From a virus (Duplodnaviria; Caudoviricetes), in the IMG/VR virus record IMGVR_UViG_3300029305_004678, positions 95,800-159,799 of that record: a DNA stretch of 64,000 bases; one strand, written 5' to 3'. Under the pieces are notes generated by a model. That model did no database searches and was not told the DNA's origin. It saw nothing but the letters and a program-made list of their open reading frames with translations. Each line of letters begins with the position of its first letter. The first letter of the stretch is position 1. Below, piece after piece: positions 34,734 through 62,338 of the stretch. The position numbers and the translations under genes are program-made.

Positions 34734-37379
34734 ATGAGAATGATGGATGAACTTAAACCTCTATTTTTATATTCTGCCAATAAAAAGGTCTATGTTCCTA
34801 TAAATGAGAAAGATAGAAAGAAGGGATCTGCTATACTTCTATTAACCCCGAGTATGGAGGTTAGTAGTCAGCTTATGAGACTTCCGTATCTTATAAATCC
34901 AATGATCTATAGATCTTTCTATATCGATAGGAATGTAACGGCATATATAGAAAATGTACCAGAAGAGGTACTTAATTTTGATCCTGTTGAGGAAGAAACT
35001 TTGTCCGAAACTATGATTAGTGCATTCGGAGGAAAAACTAAGATCAAATTTGAAGATGGAATATCTATGATGGATATGAGATATCTTAAAAAGATATATA
35101 CTTCCAATCTTGTTAAAGACTATGCAGCTCTTTTAGGACTCTCGAAAATTCCAGAGGAAATTAATGTTAAGGTATATCCTAATATTAGAGCTCTTAGGGA
35201 GAGTTATAACGGTAAGTCTGATAAGGATAAATTATATTACTATGTAAGAGATTCGCATATTTGCGTGGTAAGTTCTATGGCATATGATGAGAGATTAATG
35301 TATGGCCCTTATGATATGTATCTTGCTTCTGCTCTTGCAAGTTGTATAATGGCATCTTATAATATAGATCTTAGTGCTAAAATTGTTTACGCAATAGCAG
35401 CAAATGTGTCCGGATTATCCAATTGGGATAAGGAGAATAATGGTCAAGTAGATTTTGGCGATGAAAAGAAAATACTAAAAGTTATTAATAGAATGACAGA
35501 GGTTGAAGGCTATCGTGGTATAACCAAATATATTAATACTGCAGATATAAGAATATTTACCAAATTTATTATTGGTAATGATATTATGGCTTTTCGTAAG
35601 ATATTCTCAGAGGGTCTAAGCTACTCTGAAAGACAGAGATTGCTCCCCTCTCAATTTGGTATACCAGATAAAAGGAAGTATCCTATACATGATGAAGAGC
35701 ATGTAAGATTAGCAATAAAAATGTTTAATTCTTGCGATGCTGATGAGGAAAAAGAATTAGCTGAAAATATAATCAAACAGATTAAGAAATTTGGTATGAC
35801 AGATATTAGAGTTAGTGCATCTAATAGATTTAGAAGTTATTATACCAAATCTAAAATCTATAAATACACTTGCGCTAAATCTGAAGTGACAAAGGAATCT
35901 GCTATAGAAGATAATCCAGAATGTTCAAACTTTGATGATGTACAGAAGATTTGTTCTTCTCTTACTCAAGATGAGTTAAAGAGAATTACATTCAAAAATG
36001 AATATGAGAATTCTCCTTTTATAATTAAGAGAATTATCCATAAAGTAGATGGGAATCCTGCAGGATTTTTAGACGTGTATAGATTCCCGTCTTCTCCAGG
36101 AATTGCTCAAATTACTTTAGCAGTTTCGAATGATTATAGAGATATGGGTATAGCCAGTTCTATGGTTAAAGAAATGCTTGGATGCGATCTCGGCATAAAG
36201 CATGGATTTAATACATATTATTGGACTGCTCATGATGATAATTTAGCATCTCAGTATTTGGCAAGAAACAACGGATTTGAAGATACTGGTAATAAGGATG
36301 TATATGGAAGAAAGATTTTTGTGAAATATCTAAATAAAGATATGGCGGCTCCTAATATTCTTCCTTCTCATATTACTCCAGATAGTAGATTTGAAAGTGG
36401 CCTATATAATACAGATAATATGATTATTAGTGAAAACATGGCTATCTTCACAGAAGGTGATGAAAGTATGTATTCTAATAAGCTTAGAAAATATCTGTAT
36501 AGTGAACGCCTTAAAAATAGTAGAGAAGTTATGAAGTATTATGAGAGTATGAAAGTTCTTAATCCTGAAATCACTAAAATGTATCCGAGAATAGAGATGT
36601 ATAAGGGATTAAATCTTTTTGTAGATCTTTCTTACTATCATGGACTATTTCTCAAGAATATTCAGTTCAAATTAGATAAGGCCGTTAATTTCTATTTTGA
36701 ATTCATTAATCGTCTTATAAATAATAAAGAATTGAATGCTTCTTATAAGAAACAGACAATATTTATTCCTATAGATCCAGGTGTATGGCCCGCACAGCCT
36801 ATGAGTGACTTATACGACTTTAGGAAAAATCTAAATCCAATTTCAATTATCTTGCGTCTTATACGTACCAATCCTGAGGCTCTCAGGAAGGCATGGGGAG
36901 ATAAAGATATAATTTTTGTTGGTACTAGAGGATATTTTAAGGTCGATTTTAAGACATTCGATATGAAAAATCTTCCTAGATTCAAAATCAATCTTAGAAA
37001 GCTCACTTCAACTGAACCTGTTGTAGATGATTTCGAAATAGATGATGTAGTAGATGATGATAAAGCTTTTGAAAGAAGTGATTCGAAAAATACCCATACA
37101 AATAAAGCTATTGCTATAAGAATGATAGATAGAGCCGAAAATGAATTGGGTATAAAGATTGATGATGTAAGTGGAATATCTGCAGATAAAAATGCGGATA
37201 CAAATTCCAACCACTTACAGATAACTTCTAATCCTATTAAGCTATCTAGCAGTGGTAAGAATTGTAATGTAATTATTACAATAGACCCTGATGGTCCTGA
37301 TGGATATGACGCTATGCTTAAAGGAGCTATAAGCAACATCAATAAAATTGGTGTATATTGTATGCCAGAATCTAATTAA
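34734..37379 (+). CDS. large late multidomain protein with DUF6582-like and GNAT domains
   Basis: ERQRLLPSQFGIPDKRKYPIHDEEHVRLAIKMFN; LAVSNDYRDMGIASSMV...NLASQYLARNNGF; AACT-N6-TA at 34697-34708. Confidence 0.7.
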   Translation: MRMMDELKPLFLYSANKKVYVPINEKDRKKGSAILLLTPSMEVSSQLMRLPYLINPMIYRSFYIDRNVTAYIENVPEEVLNFDPVEEETLSETMISAFGGKTKIKFEDGISMMDMRYLKKIYTSNLVKDYAALLGLSKIPEEINVKVYPNIRALRESYNGKSDKDKLYYYVRDSHICVVSSMAYDERLMYGPYDMYLASALASCIMASYNIDLSAKIVYAIAANVSGLSNWDKENNGQVDFGDEKKILKVINRMTEVEGYRGITKYINTADIRIFTKFIIGNDIMAFRKIFSEGLSYSERQRLLPSQFGIPDKRKYPIHDEEHVRLAIKMFNSCDADEEKELAENIIKQIKKFGMTDIRVSASNRFRSYYTKSKIYKYTCAKSEVTKESAIEDNPECSNFDDVQKICSSLTQDELKRITFKNEYENSPFIIKRIIHKVDGNPAGFLDVYRFPSSPGIAQITLAVSNDYRDMGIASSMVKEMLGCDLGIKHGFNTYYWTAHDDNLASQYLARNNGFEDTGNKDVYGRKIFVKYLNKDMAAPNILPSHITPDSRFESGLYNTDNMIISENMAIFTEGDESMYSNKLRKYLYSERLKNSREVMKYYESMKVLNPEITKMYPRIEMYKGLNLFVDLSYYHGLFLKNIQFKLDKAVNFYFEFINRLINNKELNASYKKQTIFIPIDPGVWPAQPMSDLYDFRKNLNPISIILRLIRTNPEALRKAWGDKDIIFVGTRGYFKVDFKTFDMKNLPRFKINLRKLTSTEPVVDDFEIDDVVDDDKAFERSDSKNTHTNKAIAIRMIDRAENELGIKIDDVSGISADKNADTNSNHLQITSNPIKLSSSGKNCNVIITIDPDGPDGYDAMLKGAISNINKIGVYCMPESN

Positions 37380-42933: not shown

Positions 42934-44106
42934 TTAATATCTATTTTCGACTATATCAGGATAGTTGACAAAGAGACCATAATTCTTATTCTTGTAGACA
43001 GTTGTAGAAGAGAGCTTATCACGAAGCTGAACGAATTTATCCATAGCCTGATCCCACTTAGCCTTTTCCACATCATCACAATCGGGAGAATTACGATATT
43101 CATCTATAATGGCAATATTGGTATTGATCTGACGCATAAGATAAAGAGCATCATTCTCATCCTCAACATTTCTAACCTGCATATTCAGTTCATAGTAAGA
43201 ACTATCGATAGTACGCAGATTATTAATGCGATGCTTTCTCATCTTTTCGCGCATCTTAATACGCACAGTTTCCATTGTACCAGATGCTTCTAAGATAGCA
43301 TCATCATCAATTCTGTTAATTCTACGAATCACATTATCAATTTCCATTTTCTCTAAACGAGATCCAGTCAATTGCTTGGCTCTGCCAAGAGTCTTCAAAG
43401 AACCAATTCTACGAATACGGATATTCTTATAAAGAGACAATGTCCAACCAAATGTAATGAATTTGCTTATCTCACAATTCTCATAGAGTTTGATATTATT
43501 CTTACTTATCTTAGAATATGCACTATAAAGCTCATCTCCATGATTATGCATAAAGCAGAATTCATCGCCTGTAATCTTAGAAGGATCGGATTCATAAAAT
43601 AGAGATGCACTCTTGGACAAATAATCCTTTAATCCATATGCTAAGATTTCCTTATAATGAATGGACTGTGTAACCTTAATATGCTCTTTATTAGAAGCAA
43701 GATATGCATGTAAAGCGTCTCTAGCATTCTCAATAGGCTCAGATGTTCCTATCAAATGGCTTACCTCATACATAATGATTGCCATAATCTCAGCAGCACT
43801 CAAGGCCATAATAGGATCAAGAAGCTTAGAATCAATCTCCATAAGATACTTAGTAATGCGCTGAGGTTCATCATCTACGAGATAATCATAAATATCATCA
43901 GCATCGATAACAGGAATGAGTTTGATGCCGAAGAACATTTTGTCTGTATTTGTGGTAAAGAGAACTTCTTTACAAGTAGAATCTTTAAAGAATTTGTTTA
44001 ATTCATTCTTTAACATAGCAAGATTCTCGCTGGTTGCTGTACCAGATGTGATCATATTTGTTAAAGCTTCAGTAAAACCACTGAAATCATAAAGGATCTT
44101 TTCCAT
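42934..44106 (-). CDS. putative head structural protein
   Basis: Follows the capsid gene; late promoter 44141-44152; ILEAS site. Confidence 0.6.
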   Translation of the reverse strand: MEKILYDFSGFTEALTNMITSGTATSENLAMLKNELNKFFKDSTCKEVLFTTNTDKMFFGIKLIPVIDADDIYDYLVDDEPQRITKYLMEIDSKLLDPIMALSAAEIMAIIMYEVSHLIGTSEPIENARDALHAYLASNKEHIKVTQSIHYKEILAYGLKDYLSKSASLFYESDPSKITGDEFCFMHNHGDELYSAYSKISKNNIKLYENCEISKFITFGWTLSLYKNIRIRRIGSLKTLGRAKQLTGSRLEKMEIDNVIRRINRIDDDAILEASGTMETVRIKMREKMRKHRINNLRTIDSSYYELNMQVRNVEDENDALYLMRQINTNIAIIDEYRNSPDCDDVEKAKWDQAMDKFVQLRDKLSSTTVYKNKNYGLFVNYPDIVENRY

Positions 44107-44167
44107 TATAAATATCCCTCCATTAAGAGTTTTAAAATCTTACTTAATAGTTGGAAGTATAAAAGAT

Positions 44168-44196
44168 TGAGGAGAGCTCCAAGTAGAGCTCTCCTC
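44168..44196 (-). terminator. terminator after major capsid gene
   Basis: GAGGAGAGCTC-loop-GAGCTCTCCTC. Confidence 0.8.
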
Positions 44197-44215
44197 GTTA
44201 TTTACACAGAAGGAA

Positions 44216-46003
44216 TTACTTCAGCAGATTAAAGTCACTCATGTACTGACCGCCGATGGGATCCTCATTGGGAGCGATCTCGGTCAGACCAGTGGGATGC
44301 TTAATCTGGATACGACCCTGAACAGGCTGATACTCGACGAACTTCCAGCGTTCGAACGCATGGATAGCGGGCAGAGCAGGATTGTTCATGTTACGGATCT
44401 CGTTGGAAACGTACATCTGATAGTCGTAGATGCGGTAAACAATACGGTTGGTATTGCGGGGGCACAGAACGATGATCAGATTGTTGTTACCACGCAGCTT
44501 ATCGGAAGAGATGAACTGATAGACGCGCTTGTCGGAAGTAACGACGGTCTTAACGAAGTCCAGCTCAACAGGACCGATATTGGAAGGAGTCTGGTAGGTG
44601 TACTCGGTAGGAGTAATCTTACGAACCAGCTCGGGAGCACCAAAGATGGTGACAGTCATGTTGGGATCATTCAGGACCTGGAACATGCCAGTGGTGACAG
44701 AATCCAGGAAGTCCATGAAGGTCTTATAACGCCACTCGACGTGGTCCAGAGCGTAGCCCTGACGAGGAGCGAAGTCGAAAGTGGTAGCGATCTTGTTAGA
44801 AGCAGGCATAGTCATGAAAGAGTTATCCAGATGCTTCTTGATCTCGCCATCCTTGTACTCACCCAGAACAGTCTTCATCAGGGACAGAATCTTGGACAGC
44901 TGGTTAACATTGTACAGTGCACCCAGATCCTTGACTTCCTCGGGAGAGACAGTGGTGTTAACAGGGATAGCAGAACCGATTTCAACGATATCGGTATTAA
45001 CCTTCCAGCGGACAGAGCAGGTCTTGACCATAGCGCTGGAGGTATCCAGACGGGCGCTCAGACGAACGGCAGAAACCAGACCAGTGGAAGCAGCCAGCAT
45101 AAACTTGTTGTTCCGCATGTAACCGGTAATAACGTCCTTCATAACGACAGTCTTGGTGGTATCAGCAGCATCGCGAGCAGTCAGCTGGACTTCTTCGACG
45201 ATAGCGCGATCGATCTCACCATAAGAGGGGGCAAACTTCAGGTTGACGGGCATCCAGAAGTCGTACTGACCTTCAGCATCAACAGGCAGGCCAGTTTCGG
45301 GGTTGATATCGCCAGCAGCCAGGGTCACGCCAGTAACCTTAACAGCGGAGATATAGGTATCGATGGACAGGTTGTCACCATCAGTACCACCACAAGCCAG
45401 CAGAACGTCGGTCTGGCCGTCGGTCTGGGGCAGGGTCAGCTCAAGAACATGATAGGGAGCGGTAGCGGCGATAGCATCGCGGATCCGATACTGTTCCTTG
45501 AACATATCGATCTCTTCACCCTCGGGAGTAACCAGAATGCGCTTCTCCATGGAGATGGTGAACTTGGGCTCACGTGCAACGAACTTGGGAATAGCACCCT
45601 TGTCGAAGACGTTGTTCATCATGATATTCTTGTGCAGGGGGAAGGTCATACCGATAACAGGGTTAGCGGCAGCCAGGTTGGTATGCTCGTTGATAGCGTC
45701 CAGATCGTTCTCGAACTGAGCTTCAGCCATCAGGCGAGCATCTTCGGCCAGTGCGGCAGCATGGCCAGGATCGGTCTTAGTGAACTCGTTCTGATCGAAG
45801 CAATTTTCGACATAGAAGTTCTTCAGAGCGTTACGGGTTGCGGGCAGCATAAGGGCCTTATGAGGCTCAATGAACAGGTCAACACCTTCGTGACGAATCT
45901 CATTGGCGCACTCACGGAAGCTCTCTGCATATGCATGAAGGGCATCATAACCATAATGATTACCCATCGATACAGTAGACTTGCGATTACCAACAATAGG
46001 CAT
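44216..46003 (-). CDS. major capsid protein precursor
   Basis: 595 aa; strongest codon bias in the window; late promoter 46083-46094; own terminator; position in the head module near protease and terminase. Confidence 0.8.
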   Translation of the reverse strand: MPIVGNRKSTVSMGNHYGYDALHAYAESFRECANEIRHEGVDLFIEPHKALMLPATRNALKNFYVENCFDQNEFTKTDPGHAAALAEDARLMAEAQFENDLDAINEHTNLAAANPVIGMTFPLHKNIMMNNVFDKGAIPKFVAREPKFTISMEKRILVTPEGEEIDMFKEQYRIRDAIAATAPYHVLELTLPQTDGQTDVLLACGGTDGDNLSIDTYISAVKVTGVTLAAGDINPETGLPVDAEGQYDFWMPVNLKFAPSYGEIDRAIVEEVQLTARDAADTTKTVVMKDVITGYMRNNKFMLAASTGLVSAVRLSARLDTSSAMVKTCSVRWKVNTDIVEIGSAIPVNTTVSPEEVKDLGALYNVNQLSKILSLMKTVLGEYKDGEIKKHLDNSFMTMPASNKIATTFDFAPRQGYALDHVEWRYKTFMDFLDSVTTGMFQVLNDPNMTVTIFGAPELVRKITPTEYTYQTPSNIGPVELDFVKTVVTSDKRVYQFISSDKLRGNNNLIIVLCPRNTNRIVYRIYDYQMYVSNEIRNMNNPALPAIHAFERWKFVEYQPVQGRIQIKHPTGLTEIAPNEDPIGGQYMSDFNLLK

Positions 46004-49445: not shown

Positions 49446-50213
49446 TCAGAAAGGTAATTTGTCTTCTTCAAAATGCTTAACCATAGGAAGAGTATGAATG
49501 CATTTAGAATCTGCTACCTTTTCCAATTTCTTATTTTCTTCAATTCTAGGACAAGGATTAGCAGACTGATCTTCAATATGGTTTATAATAGCATTATACA
49601 GCATATCTTCAGCTTTAGTAACAGCAGAGATATTTGCCATAGGAACTACCAGTGCCTGAGGGTGGCTTCTGGGGCCAATAACTACAGGGTTGGTTACAGG
49701 GCCGAGATCAATAATCTCATCATTACTATTCATTGCAGCATGGCGCAAACCATTATTTTCTGTAAATGTAATAACGGTATCAACAGGAAGAGTATCATCA
49801 CTACCACCAAACTCCATACCATACATAAAACGTCCAGAAGCCGGATTAGTTACTCCATAACCAAGTTTGTTATCCTTAGTACATACATAAGAATCTGGTG
49901 CACCAAAACTTCTACCCATATATCTAATTAGCCGAGTTGTATCTTCCAAATGTCCAGCCATATATTCCACATGGCTGTCGAGATTACCCCAATATTTATC
50001 AGGTATACAAATCGGCTGAGCATTAGAATGTGCACCAAAGCATTCAACACACGTTACAGGAATAGCATAGGGACGATTGGGATCATAGCCATTATTATCG
50101 CCATTAATGGCTGTAGGAATTGCAGGATGCATTTCTACAATAGTAACCTCATTTTCATGGTTATTATCGCAAGTACATCCATTAGGATTTTTGCATTTGT
50201 GATTCTTTTTCAT
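49446..50213 (-). CDS. hypothetical protein (255 aa)
   Basis: AAGGAG RBS; GTATATTATA at 50310-50319. Confidence 0.75.
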   Translation of the reverse strand: MKKNHKCKNPNGCTCDNNHENEVTIVEMHPAIPTAINGDNNGYDPNRPYAIPVTCVECFGAHSNAQPICIPDKYWGNLDSHVEYMAGHLEDTTRLIRYMGRSFGAPDSYVCTKDNKLGYGVTNPASGRFMYGMEFGGSDDTLPVDTVITFTENNGLRHAAMNSNDEIIDLGPVTNPVVIGPRSHPQALVVPMANISAVTKAEDMLYNAIINHIEDQSANPCPRIEENKKLEKVADSKCIHTLPMVKHFEEDKLPF

Positions 50214-50324
50214 GTCAATTTCTCCTTTAATATTTTTAATGAGTACACTACAAATGCTCTCATTTATTTTATTGTGGAGAATTAGATTAATTTGTAATAT
50301 ACTCGTGAATATAATATACGTCTA

Positions 50325-50422
50325 TAAAAAGATATGAGTCTAGTGCCTAAAAAGACACTAGACTCATTTTACGAAAGGAAATTTCAACCATGCCAAACCA
50401 AATATCCACCATAATTCAGCTC
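50325..50422 (-). ncRNA. candidate small RNA (~95 nt) with anti-SD/anti-start segment
   Basis: AACA-N6-TG at 50422-50433; terminator AUGAGUCUAGUG/CACUAGACUCAU plus U-tract; contains UUUGGCAUGGUUGAAAUUUCCUUUC. Confidence 0.55.
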
Positions 50423-50444
50423 AATGATATGTTAAGATGATTAA

Positions 50445-50686
50445 AACAAAAATTATTACAGATGCTGATCAGGCATCTGTAATAATCCGGATCTTGTATA
50501 AAAGATCCTTTCATCATTATACTCCATAATCATTTCGCCTCATCTCTTTATTGTGTTCTCCACGCACAATAAAGAATGAAAGAGTAATCTGAAAAATATA
50601 CAGGCTCACCACTTCCTATATATTTTAAAAAGTATATATCTCCCAAGCCCTGAATGTCTTGCTCAATATATCGTGATTACTCTCTT
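50445..50686 (-). ncRNA. candidate structured RNA (~240 nt)
   Basis: AACT-N6-TA at 50686-50697; stems AGAGUAAUC/GAUUACUCU, UCUUUAUUGUG/CACAAUAAAGA, GGAUCUU/AAGAUCC; terminator AUUAUUACAGAUGC/GCAUCUGUAAUAAU-UUUU. Confidence 0.55.
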
Positions 50687-50752
50687 ATACATAAGTTTAA
50701 TATTTTTTATTTAATAAAAAATAAAAGGCCCCTTTCAGAGCCTTTTATCATA

Positions 50753-51505
50753 TTAGTGTTTAACCATTGTGCGTTTAAAGATATTGATGCATTGTACACA
50801 AAGTTTATTTACCATATCTTCAGATATATTTAGTTCCCTTGAAATATCATATGCCGGGAGATGCTTCTTAAACCTCAAATCAAATGCTTCTACCATCTTG
50901 GTTGCATAATCAATTTTATCGGGATTATGCTTAATAATCGCATCAAGATGCTTAGTAATTATGCTATCAAATTCAGGATAGATTTTATCATATCCTTTAT
51001 GAGTTCCAAATACCAATATATAAATATTGAGAGGATAACTCATATAAGTATATTTATCTTTATTAGATGTCAATTTAGCGGTCTGAAGTTGCTTAATTCT
51101 AATTCTTATAGCACCTTCAGATCTACCAGGAAGCAATTCCATCAGTTCTTTACTAATTTCCATATTATGCTTTCTTATCTGATAATCTTCTTCCTTGGTC
51201 CATGCAGAAGGACCTTTAATCTTTAAAACTGAAGCGCGATTTTTAATAGCATACTCGCTTCTATTCGGTAGCATATCTATTACCTTAACTCCAATTTTAG
51301 GATAGTGCTTTCTAAGGATATCTTCTTCCTCATTTGTCCAATCAGAAACAGTTTTGCTGATATGAACTCCTAACTTATTTGCACGTCCCATAACAGATGC
51401 CTTGGATCTATTAGGAAATAGATCTGTGATTCTAGATCCCATAGTCTGATAGTTATCCAGGATAAGCTGATCTTCCTCTTTTGTGAAAAACTTATAGTTG
51501 CCCAT
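50753..51505 (-). CDS. Myb/SANT-repeat DNA-binding protein with C-terminal sigma4-like HTH
   Basis: Three (F/W)TxEE(D/E)xx(I/L)...PxRS repeats; YPLNIY..FG; LPAYDISRELNISEDMV. Confidence 0.75.
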   Translation of the reverse strand: MGNYKFFTKEEDQLILDNYQTMGSRITDLFPNRSKASVMGRANKLGVHISKTVSDWTNEEEDILRKHYPKIGVKVIDMLPNRSEYAIKNRASVLKIKGPSAWTKEEDYQIRKHNMEISKELMELLPGRSEGAIRIRIKQLQTAKLTSNKDKYTYMSYPLNIYILVFGTHKGYDKIYPEFDSIITKHLDAIIKHNPDKIDYATKMVEAFDLRFKKHLPAYDISRELNISEDMVNKLCVQCINIFKRTMVKH

Positions 51506-59542: not shown

Positions 59543-60325
59543 TTATCCTCCTAATGCACTTATATTATTTTTTGAATTCTTTGGAGTGACAACTCTTCCG
59601 GTTATACCTTCAGCTCCACTCTTAGATTCTTTATTATAATTATAAGATTGTTGAGGTACATCCATTACGAATCTATTTGTACCAAGTTCTGGTCTTTCTA
59701 GATAATTTATCATAATGGTTGCAGCTTGATACATATTGAAGCATGAGAATACATAATATAATCCCATAAATCGATCTAAATCCATATCTACAAAAGATGA
59801 ATTATCGCCTATATACATTCTTATGCCAGGTTCTTTATCATCATTAGCTATACCTTTATCTATTATTGTAGGTACAAATGTTATAACCTTCTGCATAGGT
59901 AAATTTGATATAGTAAACTCTGGAATAGGATTAGTTATAATAAGTTTACCTTTATTTCTTGCAAAAAGGTATTTAAATTCTTCAGAAGTGAACCAAGAGG
60001 TTACGACATCTAAAGCGCGTTTAAATATCATATACTCTTGAGCTCCAATTCTTATAAATGCTTTATTTCCATTATCATCTTTCTGAATATTCTCTATAGA
60101 AAGATAATAATCAAAACTTCTTTTGATTGTAGCAACTGTAGGAATATCATTACACTTAGAAGGATATTCATATTCTTTATGAAAATGATATCTCTTTCCA
60201 TTCGCCACCTTGGAAAGAGATACATTAAATTTTAATACCACATTCGGACCTAATGCATAAACATCATCCGATATTTTATCTATCTTAAAGAACTCAATAG
60301 GTTCTTCTAGAACTCTTTTTGCCAT
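59543..60325 (-). CDS. hypothetical protein
   Basis: GAGGAG RBS before MAKRV; AACT-N6-TA at 60348-60359. Confidence 0.8.
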   Translation of the reverse strand: MAKRVLEEPIEFFKIDKISDDVYALGPNVVLKFNVSLSKVANGKRYHFHKEYEYPSKCNDIPTVATIKRSFDYYLSIENIQKDDNGNKAFIRIGAQEYMIFKRALDVVTSWFTSEEFKYLFARNKGKLIITNPIPEFTISNLPMQKVITFVPTIIDKGIANDDKEPGIRMYIGDNSSFVDMDLDRFMGLYYVFSCFNMYQAATIMINYLERPELGTNRFVMDVPQQSYNYNKESKSGAEGITGRVVTPKNSKNNISALGG

Positions 60326-60415
60326 GTCTATTCTCCTCAAAATAGGTTACTATAGAGTTGTAGAGTTTATACAAATCAAAAAAAAAAAGATGGGGAGGAG
60401 TCTCCCCATCTTTTA

Positions 60416-62242
60416 TTAATTCTCGCTAGTATTAGCGGCATTAGAAGAGGATGTTTCTGTAGTGGCTTCTGTCTCTACTTTATCCTCATTCTGTTTCTTA
60501 TTGGATTTCTTGCTTCCGCTCTTTGTCTTCTTTTCCTGCTTAGGAGTTTCGGCTTCCTGAGCGGTATCAGAAGAAGCTGTATCTGCAGGCGGATTATTGG
60601 GAGAGTGGACAAACACCTGGGCGCCGGTCTTAAAGGTGATCTCGGTAGGAATCGTATTTACGATAGGTCCGTTGAATGTCACAGGTACATTGACATTGGT
60701 CAGGACGAAGGTTCCACGATCCTTATCGTAAGAATCATCCTTGAACTCGAATCTGGAACCAGGTGCCATTGCAATAGCTTTGTCGAATACACCGGCAGTC
60801 AAAGCCTTTACCAGACGGTCCTGAACTGCCTTGCGGCGCTCACCGTTCATCAACTTGGTGGGCATAGTGCTCAGATCAACGATCTTATTGAGCTTGCGAT
60901 ACTGCTGGGTGTACATACCGCGACCATCAAGCATAGTGATACCTCCAACGAAGATCTTTTCGAACATTTCTTCATTGAAGTTATACTTATTCTTATTGAT
61001 CTTGTCATTGATCTGGATAGCGTATGCAGGCATATCTTCAAACCCATTCAGAACGATGCCTGTGAACAACTTGGGTCTACGATCGATGATATTTCCGGTA
61101 TCGATCGTAAAGCTCTTGAGTTCATTGAAGATATTCGTCCCATCATTGAATGCATAGCACAATACCATGCCAGTCTGAATCATGGGATTTGCAGCATAAC
61201 CCAGCATTTCCATCTTAAGCTGGATATGATGCTTCAATGCGATTCTCTGGATTTCTCCAAGATAGGGAAATGCTGCAATCAGCAAGCTGTTGTCGTACAA
61301 CTGTTCAGAAGGCTTATCCGGAATATGAGGTGTCTCCTTCTGAATGATATCAGGATGCTGATCACGAATAACCTTATTGTGCTTATTCGGATCAACGAAG
61401 GGTTGAGCGATATTTGTATTGCTTACCTCTACATGATCCGCTTCAGCTCTGGGAGGCTTGGGAGTAATGACCTTGGGAGGTGCATCCACTCGATGAATGG
61501 GGGGCTGCTGAGGTGTTGTCATAGGCTGATTAACAATGGGCTGCTGAATAGGGGGAACATTTATCTGAGGTGTTCCCGAGGGAACATTCATCTGATGTGT
61601 TCCCATAACGGGTTGCTGTACAAATGCAGAATTCTGCATCACAGGCTGCTGCCCAGGGAATACCTGAGGCTGATTGAACATATTGTTCTGATCACTCACA
61701 GATGTCTGCTTAAGAAGACTAGGTTCTACTTTTTCTTCAACAGTCATATCCATGTCAAAATGGATACCACCAATGTTGATACCCTCGACAGGGTTCTGGC
61801 CATTCTGCTGATTGGCAGAACAGATATCGCCTACAATGGGATCGTTATTGTTTTCCATTTTTTCTGCACCGGGTTCTTCTGCAGGTGCTTCCTTAGAAGC
61901 GGCGATAACTTCTTCGGATTCTTCGGCTACAGGATCCTCAGAAGTACTTGTAGCTTCAGTATTTTTCTTACCAAATACTTTGGAGAAAATATTCTTCTTT
62001 TCCTTCTTAGTATCGGTAGCGGGAGCTTCCTTGACACTAGTCTCGGTAGCGGTTGTTGTTGCAGCATTGTTATTATTAGAGACACTATTAGTCTCCTTGG
62101 CTTCGCAATTTGTACCGGCTGCACGGTTCACGCGATCTCTACGCATCTTATCGACATGTTTTTCAATGTCGAAAGTTCTGTCCATCCACCAATATCTCAC
62201 GGCATCGGTGAAACGGACTCCGTAGTACTTACTCTTTGCCAT
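60416..62242 (-). CDS. large protein with disordered T/E/A- and Q/P-rich regions
   Basis: AAGGAGG RBS before MAKSK; strong codon bias. Confidence 0.8.
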   Translation of the reverse strand: MAKSKYYGVRFTDAVRYWWMDRTFDIEKHVDKMRRDRVNRAAGTNCEAKETNSVSNNNNAATTTATETSVKEAPATDTKKEKKNIFSKVFGKKNTEATSTSEDPVAEESEEVIAASKEAPAEEPGAEKMENNNDPIVGDICSANQQNGQNPVEGINIGGIHFDMDMTVEEKVEPSLLKQTSVSDQNNMFNQPQVFPGQQPVMQNSAFVQQPVMGTHQMNVPSGTPQINVPPIQQPIVNQPMTTPQQPPIHRVDAPPKVITPKPPRAEADHVEVSNTNIAQPFVDPNKHNKVIRDQHPDIIQKETPHIPDKPSEQLYDNSLLIAAFPYLGEIQRIALKHHIQLKMEMLGYAANPMIQTGMVLCYAFNDGTNIFNELKSFTIDTGNIIDRRPKLFTGIVLNGFEDMPAYAIQINDKINKNKYNFNEEMFEKIFVGGITMLDGRGMYTQQYRKLNKIVDLSTMPTKLMNGERRKAVQDRLVKALTAGVFDKAIAMAPGSRFEFKDDSYDKDRGTFVLTNVNVPVTFNGPIVNTIPTEITFKTGAQVFVHSPNNPPADTASSDTAQEAETPKQEKKTKSGSKKSNKKQNEDKVETEATTETSSSNAANTSEN

Positions 62243-62338
62243 TTTTCTGGCCTCCTTAAATAAATGATATAGATGAGAAATATTTCTCATCTATTCATAA
62301 TTATATTATATCTTTAAACTTATTTTATTTAACGAAAA

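Follow-up and report, generated by a model that had tools for sequence, protein, structure and literature searches.

Organization of the locus

The stretch of DNA analyzed here (the window, 64,000 nucleotides) covers positions 95,800 to 159,799 of the IMG/VR virus record IMGVR_UViG_3300029305_004678, a record of 159.8 kb that is about 65% complete and has a G+C content of 33%. The stretch was found in DNA runs from animal gut or faeces metagenomes, and its terminase (TerL) and prohead protease show 30-39% identity to those of the Bacillus jumbo phages BpSp, Goe21 and AR9/PBS1, of Takahashivirus, and of Staphylococcus jumbo phages. Judged by these sequence similarities, the source phage is an uncultured giant gut phage and a relative of Bacillus phage AR9. 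A region adjoining the head-protease and head-gene cluster contains a gap devoid of genes, which is flanked and occupied by the following features.

50753-51505, minus strand: Myb-domain (Myb-like) early gene, upstream flank of the gap
50214-50752: gene-free gap of 539 bp between two minus-strand genes
50720..50749, minus strand: intrinsic terminator of the Myb-like gene (terminator scan), 5' boundary of the RNA locus
50686..50697, minus strand: late-type promoter P1, AACT-TATGTA-TA, with a predicted start at A50686, two bases before the closing stem of RNA-1
50445..50686, minus strand: RNA-1, predicted, about 242 nt (conservation, covariation, covariance model)
50533-50456, minus strand: 25-codon ORF (MIMEYNDER...) overlapping the 3' half of RNA-1
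50422..50433, minus strand: late promoter P2, AACA-TATCAT-TG (AACATATCATTG), with a predicted start at G50422
50325..50422, minus strand: RNA-2, predicted, about 98 nt (covariation, late promoter P2)
50303..50318, minus strand: early promoter of the 255-aa gene, TATATTAT-N6-G (motif list), 3' boundary of the RNA locus
49446-50213, minus strand: gene for a 255-aa protein of no known family, downstream flank of the gap

The two flanking proteins each have 10-12 clusters at 44-67% identity in a large protein collection, and the contigs fetched from these clusters provided a set of 11 related contig sequences from animal-gut metagenomes, nine of them full-length homologues; alignment A5 comprises 11 sequences. 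The gene order in the relatives is constant (protease, Myb gene, a gap of 519-540 bp, 255-aa gene), and the RNA locus lies at the same position in every related contig that spans the gap, the RNA being a direct neighbor of the 255-aa gene wherever one contig covers both. Contig L011 has no Myb gene, yet the gap (571 bp) and its contents are retained. At L011:2930-3500 the RNA locus abuts the divergent protease gene, and RNA-1, RNA-2 and promoter P1 are all kept. Because L011 maintains both RNAs without the Myb-like gene, the Myb-like protein is not an obligatory partner of them. In some relatives (L004:2942-3496 and L005:4420-5229), a papain-like (Peptidase_C1) gene that the window lacks separates the 255-aa gene from an 817-aa gene. 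The assembly of one sample has a break precisely where the Myb-like gene terminator is located, at the 5' edge of the RNA locus (end of L012, start of L006), which probably reflects strain variation in the assembly graph.

A covariance model was built for RNA-1 and run on the phage's own record, the relatives, cultured phages and Bacillota genomes. It detected a single copy in the phage's own record (282 bits) and one copy per related contig covering the gap (270-288 bits). No RNA-1 homologue was found with this model in the five cultured AR9-like phages AR9, Goe21, BpSp, S6 and SA1, and in AR9 the gap is missing from the syntenic place next to the protease gene. The model gave no match in 151 sampled Bacillota genomes either, a small sample that proves little on host origin. 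Relatives of the gap and of its flanking proteins were also absent from IMG/VR and the JGI metagenomes, searched with two DNA patterns and a protein profile, and GenBank phages yielded neither a DNA match to the gap nor a match to the flanking proteins. A 20-mer of a Paenibacillus genome that matches the locus was discarded as a chance match because the RNA-1 model finds nothing in that genome. As far as these sequence searches reach, the RNA-1 family appears so far confined to an uncultured gut clade that consists of the source phage and about ten diverged relatives.

Conservation and strand of the RNA locus

RNA-1 had been described in the first-pass annotation as a structured RNA of about 240 nt belonging to no catalogued class. 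The mean pairwise identity of RNA-1 among the 11 contigs is 0.894, with a minimum of 0.860, and that of the RNA-2 body is 0.85, whereas the adjacent 255-aa gene shows mean identities of 0.71 (protein), 0.729 (DNA) and 0.544 (third codon positions). The terminators and promoter leaders around RNA-1 and RNA-2 have identities of 0.62-0.72. The identity of RNA-1 is far above that of the adjacent genes, and therefore the constraint at the nucleotide level must be much stronger on RNA-1 than on those genes. The locus is among the most conserved stretches between these gut phages and encodes no protein. The conserved block does not end at 50445 and extends about 120 nt further, to approximately 50325, taking in a second promoter and a terminator that covaries.

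The wobble pairs of RNA-1 are 72 G.U versus 1 A.C, and the consensus energy of the sense strand (-71.7) is lower than that of the reverse complement (-58.5). The large excess of G.U over A.C indicates that the folded molecule is the minus-strand RNA. The small ORF is located on this strand as well, which identifies the minus-strand transcript as the RNA concerned.

When Rfam 15 (4227 models) was scanned at the gathering threshold, no family matched the locus, and the only matches in the window were three group I introns located elsewhere. With the search restricted to 50150-50800 and relaxed to E values of up to 10, only chance-level scores of 15-25 bits appeared, compared with thresholds of 36-141. 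No tRNA or tmRNA was detected with ARAGORN. Taken together, the conservation, the covariation described below, the G.U excess and the lack of an Rfam match bear out the initial description.

Secondary structure of RNA-1

The minimum free energy (MFE) of RNA-1 is -73.8 kcal/mol, compared with -49.4 +/- 4.4 kcal/mol for dinucleotide shuffles (z = -5.6). Pair counts were taken from the RNAalifold consensus on the 11 sequences of alignment A5, which contains 76 pairs in eight helices, with 99.5% of 766 cells being standard pairs. The main elements of the predicted fold, all of them on the minus strand, are listed in 5' to 3' order.

50580..50684: 5' domain, three-way junction (MFE in 9/9 homologues; double changes in helices P2 and P3)
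50684-50675 with 50589-50580: helix P1, closing stem GAGAGUAAUC/GAUUACUCUU
50671-50665/50640-50634: helix P2, double change at one pair
50661-50644: inner hairpin P2a, invariant loop AYUCAG
50626-50615/50604-50593: helix P3, invariant loop AAGUGGUGAG, three double-change pairs
50545..50575: hairpin hp5, 11-bp stem, loop CGUGGAGAA, 100% paired in 11 sequences
50507..50543: 37-nt purine-rich segment AUGAGGCG...GAUGAAAGG (alignment A5)
50489..50508: hairpin hp7, 7-bp stem, loop UUAUAC, 100% paired
50450..50488: hairpin hp8, 16-bp stem followed by U5 (terminator scan; covariation)

The elements that had been read from the single sequence are all present on the minus strand: the closing stem, the long hairpin whose loop contains GGAGA, the small hairpin and a final hairpin with a U run behind it. 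The homologues added a covariation signal. Compensatory double changes were observed at nine pairs (19 cells), a number that none of 500 shuffles reached, and only 0-1 double-change pairs were left when the pairing partners were slid by 1-3 columns. These changes are distributed over five helices (P2, one; P3, three; hp5, one; hp7, one; hp8, three), while helices P1, P2a and hp6 are invariant and provide no covariation signal. The covariation is drawn from 11 sequences that are all about 90% alike, which is why most RNA-1 pairs never vary. In hp5, one pair goes from U-A to C-G and to U.G, and in hp7, A-U, G.U and G-C alternate at two pairs. The three pairs of hp8 change from U-A to A-U (five sequences), from A-U to G-C (four sequences) and from A-U to G-C (one sequence). 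The contigs from four DNA runs contributed only three extra variant sites in RNA-1, one of which turns a U.G pair of helix P3 into U-A, the other two falling within the variable linker of the junction where it meets the 5' edge of P3. Helix-preserving covariation restricted to one strand is the general mark of a structured non-coding RNA, and together with the strand-specific G.U excess it makes it very likely that the RNA-1 locus encodes a functional non-coding RNA.

The 5' domain had been drawn as a rod of about 105 nt, a shape that the homologues do not support. The unconstrained MFE structure in 9/9 full-length homologues is instead a three-way junction formed by helix P1 and two hairpins, at -25 to -30 kcal/mol versus -7 to -14 kcal/mol for the rod, which is therefore 14-19 kcal/mol worse. 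In addition, 92% of the cells in the second helix of the rod are paired, three broken ones falling on a single pair, and the junction covaries better.

Several parts of RNA-1 are frozen, namely the loop of P2a, the P3 loop AAGUGGUGAG, the hp5 loop GUGGAGAA, the 37-nt linker and the top of hp8, where the upper stem and the loop C[C/U]GAUCA, which includes a GAUC palindrome, are invariant. The 37-nt segment is identical in 11/11 sequences except for 0-2 extra A residues after GGCG. It contains five AUG triplets, three Shine-Dalgarno (SD)-like motifs and the start of the small ORF, and five ATG in 37 nt are reached by only 0.1% of the genome windows. A weak A-U hairpin (50533-50513) may form inside this segment. 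The aligned homologues hence show a constraint in which the stems vary with pairing kept, and the loops, the internal loops and the linker are fixed in sequence. A loop-loop contact between P2a (UCAG) and hp8 (CUGA) was considered and rejected, as the variable bases do not co-vary in alignment A3.

Words resembling GUGG(A/U)G are located in the loops of P3 and hp5 of RNA-1 and of the first RNA-2 hairpin, and the stricter form of this motif, whose frequency in the genome is 0.15 per kb, is present twice in RNA-1. The sharing of this word by three short loops hints at a common binding partner.

Given these features, the possibility that the conservation reflects a DNA element, such as a replication origin, a packaging site or a protein-binding array, can be weighed. 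The proximity of the head-protease and head-gene cluster, the GATC palindrome in hp8 and the assembly break at the gap edge in one sample would be consistent with it. Nevertheless, the G.U to A.C asymmetry (72:1 in RNA-1 and 50:0 in RNA-2) is meaningless for duplex DNA and hence argues against such an element, as do the compensatory changes in five RNA-1 helices and the promoter and terminator motifs framing both units, so that we consider a DNA element extremely unlikely.

Promoter and terminator motifs

AR9 uses early promoters of the form AAATATATATTAT-N6-G and late promoters of the form AACA-N6-TA/G, with the last base being the transcription start; its 5' UTRs reach up to 491 nt, and its continuously expressed genes have both an early and a late promoter (PMC5312081). 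In the genome studied here, TATATTAT-N3-ATGAG lies in front of many genes, the two genes on either side of the gap among them. The late motif AACA-N6-T[AG] is found 42 times in non-coding DNA versus 19 expected, typically 15-30 nt before a ribosome-binding site, as in the case of the protease gene. When sites lying 0-35 nt before a ribosome-binding site plus ATG were counted, they accounted for 32/100 of the AACA sites and for 16/101 of the AACT-N6-TA sites, compared with 4-10% for control patterns. By these motif statistics, AR9-like motifs of both kinds, early and late, are genuine features of the genome.

The first-pass annotation had assigned RNA-1 a late promoter and a terminator of its own, and both motifs are present, although each with a reservation. 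Promoter P1 deviates from the canonical sequence by having AACT instead of AACA, and its fifth position is C in most relatives (their form being AACTCATATATA); it is thus a one-base variant of the consensus, a plausible promoter predicted from its motif. It is conserved in 9/9 full-length homologues, L011 included, and it resembles AACTTATAAATAAG, one of the 16 AACT-N6-TA sites counted above, which is located in front of the polyprotein gene at 34734, a late gene. Elsewhere in the genome the exact words upstream of RNA-1 at promoter P1 do not recur, and only the degenerate late motif is shared. Promoter P2 reads AACATATTAATA in the relatives, a full match to the consensus, with TAACAT invariant in 12 sequences. 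A late-unit promoter of the AR9 type is therefore found before both RNAs: at promoter P2, and at promoter P1 in a one-base variant that also precedes late genes in this genome.

With regard to the terminator of RNA-1, the stem of hp8 is A-U rich beside the U run, unlike the other terminators in the window, and hp8 is possibly an atypical terminator by its sequence. Because of this A-U-rich base, termination at hp8 may leak. The invariant top of the hairpin suggests, on sequence grounds, a role beyond termination. After hp8 there is an invariant AAUCAUC-N-UAACAU sequence that includes promoter P2. At the 5' boundary of the locus, the relatives have a hairpin of different sequence at the place of the Myb-gene terminator.

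The word AATCATC precedes both late promoters in the relatives, 1-2 nt before AAC, and in the window it is present only before promoter P2 (50440-50446). It is not part of the general late-promoter profile of the genome, and it may be the site of a shared regulator, if the recurrence of the word is a guide. Outside the window, at G000:C1:47436 (plus strand), a late-type promoter, AACATAAAGGTA, is followed immediately by a short hairpin with GUGGAUGGAUCAC and a T run. A further very small late RNA, whose loop word looks like those of RNA-1, may be encoded there.

RNA-2, the second unit of the conserved block

The part of the conserved block located beyond 50445 comprises RNA-2, whose elements are given below, all on the minus strand.

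50423-50394: 5' hairpin, loop (G)UGGUGGAU, with G-C/G.U/A-U exchanges
approximately 50398-50370: anti-SD/anti-AUG seed, predicted to be single-stranded (pairing scan)
50366-50335: terminator and U run, nine double-change pairs, stem rewritten between relatives

RNA-2 is 98.4% paired, with ten double-change pairs and 50 G.U versus 0 A.C. Its seed pairs with the start regions of the phage genes at a mean of -12.7 kcal/mol, compared with -8.1 +/- 0.7 kcal/mol for shuffled seeds (about 4.5 better), and genes with early promoters score best (-14.2 and -16.4, in groups of only 12 and 4 genes). When the whole 362-nt block was scanned in 24-nt windows against 120 start regions, the RNA-2 seed was the only segment that surpassed its own shuffles, with a difference of -3.2 kcal/mol. 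In RNA-1, no 24-nt window paired with the 120 start regions better than its own shuffles, and the lack of an antisense segment argues against a base-pairing role of RNA-1 and in favor of its being recognized through shape and sequence. At unrelated places elsewhere in the genome, there are three perfect 14-mers complementary to RNA-1 (raw count). A long-range helix between RNA-1 and RNA-2 proposed by RNAalifold on the joined sequence was rejected, since pairing of the RNA-1 linker with the seed is no better than that of shuffles (z about -0.5). Antisense to RNA-2, at 50391-50441 on the plus strand, there is a 16-codon ORF, MPNQISTIIQLNDMLR, with a good SD sequence. In the relatives, an indel of 1 nt puts it out of frame beyond codon 8, and thus it is not conserved as a protein.

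The presence of this seed next to RNA-1 raises the question of whether the two RNAs work as a single read-through riboregulator of about 360 nt, in the manner of RNAIII or SR1, in which RNA-1 would stabilize or deliver a 3' anti-ribosome-binding-site seed that silences mRNAs, perhaps early ones, late in infection, and which might also encode a short peptide. Both parts belong to one conserved block, the A-U-rich base of hp8 beside its U run may let transcription through, and the seed, the only such segment of the block, performs better than shuffled seeds and best on early-promoter genes. However, RNA-2 is preceded by a late promoter of its own, which in the relatives matches the consensus perfectly, no antisense segment is present in RNA-1, the linker-seed pairing does not exceed that of shuffles, and the difference between early and late genes rests on 12 and 4 genes. 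We therefore consider a single riboregulator fairly unlikely.

A second reading is that the block is a long structured 5' leader that adds late expression to the 255-aa gene and controls read-through or translation in cis. The long 5' UTRs and the double promoters of AR9 (PMC5312081) are compatible with this reading, and so is the position of the RNA beside the 255-aa gene in every contig spanning both. Nevertheless, two hairpins with U-run stops lie between promoter P1 and the 255-aa gene, and the terminator is followed by a conserved early promoter that belongs to this gene. Moreover, the whole sequence of the second terminator changes between relatives while the upstream RNA is invariant, which makes a conserved anti-terminator pairing impossible. 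A leader acting in cis is, accordingly, quite unlikely.

The small ORF within RNA-1

The 25-codon ORF raised the alternative of a structured leader plus a peptide, and in the extreme case the locus would be an mRNA for a peptide of 17-25 residues (MIMEYNDER...), with the structure being merely its leader. A GAGG motif is located 4-6 nt before the AUG, residues 1-17 are nearly identical in 11/11 sequences, and synonymous changes are found at codons 14, 16 and 17. The C-terminus, however, is not maintained: the ORF has 17 codons in 5/11 sequences, owing to a stop at codon 18, and 25-26 codons in five others, and it is frameshifted in L010 (lengths among the homologues: 17, 25, 26 and 30 codons). 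The ten variable sites are distributed 2:3:5 over the codon positions, with changes that include I/V/T, Y/C and S/P, and 8/10 of them are paired stem positions in hp7 or hp8. Codons 1-9 contain none of these sites and hence no synonymous change, compared with a third-position identity of 54% in the next gene, and the 140 nt upstream of the ORF are equally conserved. A second frame (MMKGSF...) is conserved no better.

The truncation, the frameshift and the pairing of the variable sites indicate that, in terms of frame and synonymy, RNA-1 is not a small-protein gene. Codon-level conservation of the small ORF, which by the first-pass annotation would have refuted its own reading of the locus, was not found. 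An mRNA for the peptide is thus very unlikely; a dual role as RNA and peptide is possible.

Comparison with known systems and proposed role of RNA-1

Of the known kinds compared, neither a 6S-like rod nor a GGA sponge of the CsrB type nor a small-protein gene agrees with the RNA-1 features that were tested. 6S RNA and Ms1 are similar to RNA-1 in size (about 180-300 nt), in being highly structured and in acting in trans, and the timing deduced for RNA-1 would suit a 6S-type decoy made late against the early (virion) polymerase. Nevertheless, 6S RNA is a long rod with a central bubble that resembles an open promoter, whereas RNA-1 is a three-way junction followed by separate hairpins, and no 6S model matched at E values of up to 10, so that the suggestion of a 6S-like decoy finds no support. 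The CsrB/RsmZ sponges share with RNA-1 several hairpins with similar purine-rich loops and invariant loops on covarying stems. CsrB-type RNAs carry the motif A(N)GGA in 7-22 loops, whereas the loop motif of RNA-1 and RNA-2 is GUGG(A/U)G and is found in only three or four loops. The several GGA motifs that had suggested a CsrA-type sponge are present, but they are not enriched (seven versus about 4.4 expected from the genome frequency in 366 nt, with 3/7 in predicted loops), and the sponge is not supported either.

Staphylococcus aureus RNAIII and Bacillus subtilis SR1, which combine a long multi-hairpin structure with a short ORF and an anti-ribosome-binding-site segment, would be the closest models for RNA-1 and RNA-2 if these were one transcript. 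They differ in that here the ORF is not conserved, the seed belongs to a separate unit with its own promoter, and there is no Rfam match. The pRNA of phi29 is also a phage RNA with a three-way junction; RNA-1 lies close to head genes, and its palindromic loop could allow it to self-associate. On the other hand, the phage type is different, there is no match to the Rfam pRNA model, and the two junction loops of RNA-1 have at most three complementary bases, as judged by eye.

The jumbo phages 201phi2-1 and phiKZ produce small RNAs derived from intergenic regions and 5' UTRs, of unknown function, one of which is conserved across genera with a conserved fold (PMC11512511). Like RNA-1, these are short units without a coding sequence that extend from promoter to terminator, in giant phages with their own RNA polymerases (PMC11512511). 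They differ from it in lineage, host and promoters, they have no sequence relation to it, and they were seen as transcripts whereas RNA-1 is known by comparison only. The AR9/PBS1 late units nested in early operons (PMC5312081) follow the same grammar as the locus described here, with early TATATTAT-N6-G and late AAC(A/T)-N6-TA promoters, and in both cases late monocistronic units lie between early genes. The AR9 units, however, are mostly protein genes or antisense RNAs (PMC5312081), and RNA-1 has no AR9 homologue.

On balance, RNA-1 probably represents a new family of late, trans-acting phage RNAs that likely bind protein, with its transcription, timing, ends and partner action being deduced from sequence comparison. 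Late in infection, the non-virion RNA polymerase would start at the AR9-type late promoter AACT-N6-TA, as its motif suggests, and would stop, perhaps partly, at the long hairpin hp8 and its U5. The transcript would fold, according to the covariation, into the three-way-junction domain and three further hairpins, together with the invariant 37-nt segment. The conservation pattern argues that RNA-1 would act in trans and be recognized most likely by one or several proteins, as a scaffold or a decoy. Transcription may also continue into the adjacent RNA-2, whose seed is antisense to ribosome-binding sites. The locus as a whole would therefore be a late regulatory RNA cassette nested between two early genes.

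A bolder version of this proposal, which we regard as unlikely, is that RNA-1 is the RNA half of a phage-specific ribonucleoprotein switch. Produced late by the non-virion polymerase, it would use the frozen loops and the 37-nt segment, which resembles a start region, to bind and neutralize an early protein of the phage or the host, while RNA-2 would mask ribosome-binding sites, so that the two-RNA cassette ends the early programme. Such a switch could be directed at the virion RNA polymerase, at the neighboring early protein of 255 aa, whose fold is novel, or at 30S subunits engaged in initiation. The gene programme of giant phages that have their own RNA polymerases is largely independent of the host, and to our knowledge almost nothing has been established about RNA-level regulators in them; we know of no phage that shuts off its early programme with dedicated structured RNAs. 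If RNA-1 and RNA-2 did close the early programme, this would represent a new mode of temporal control. With 242 nt, clear helices and invariant loops, RNA-1 is a compact and tractable object.

The 255-aa protein and other features of the window

The 255-aa protein encoded next to the RNA locus has no sequence match in Pfam, PHROG or PDB. Distant relatives were found, and the deeper alignment raised the pLDDT of the structural model from 37 in the first model to 73. No structure in PDB or BFVD matches the fold of the latter model (Foldseek E above 0.1), and the best Z obtained with VIA-align is 2.5. The Atlas look-alikes of the protein score below 0.8. The adjacent 255-aa protein thus provides, by family or fold, no candidate for a protein partner of RNA-1.

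Two islands of high G+C content, 44001-46000 (49%) and 60001-62000 (41.5%), stand out from the overall 33% and coincide with long genes encoding proteins of 595 aa (44216-46003) and 624 aa (60416-62290). The 595-aa protein has no Pfam match, and on the strand opposite each of the two genes there is an open frame of nearly full length. Finally, the three group I introns of the window are located within 2 kb of each other on the minus strand (1016-2941), with Rfam scores of 85-96 bits.
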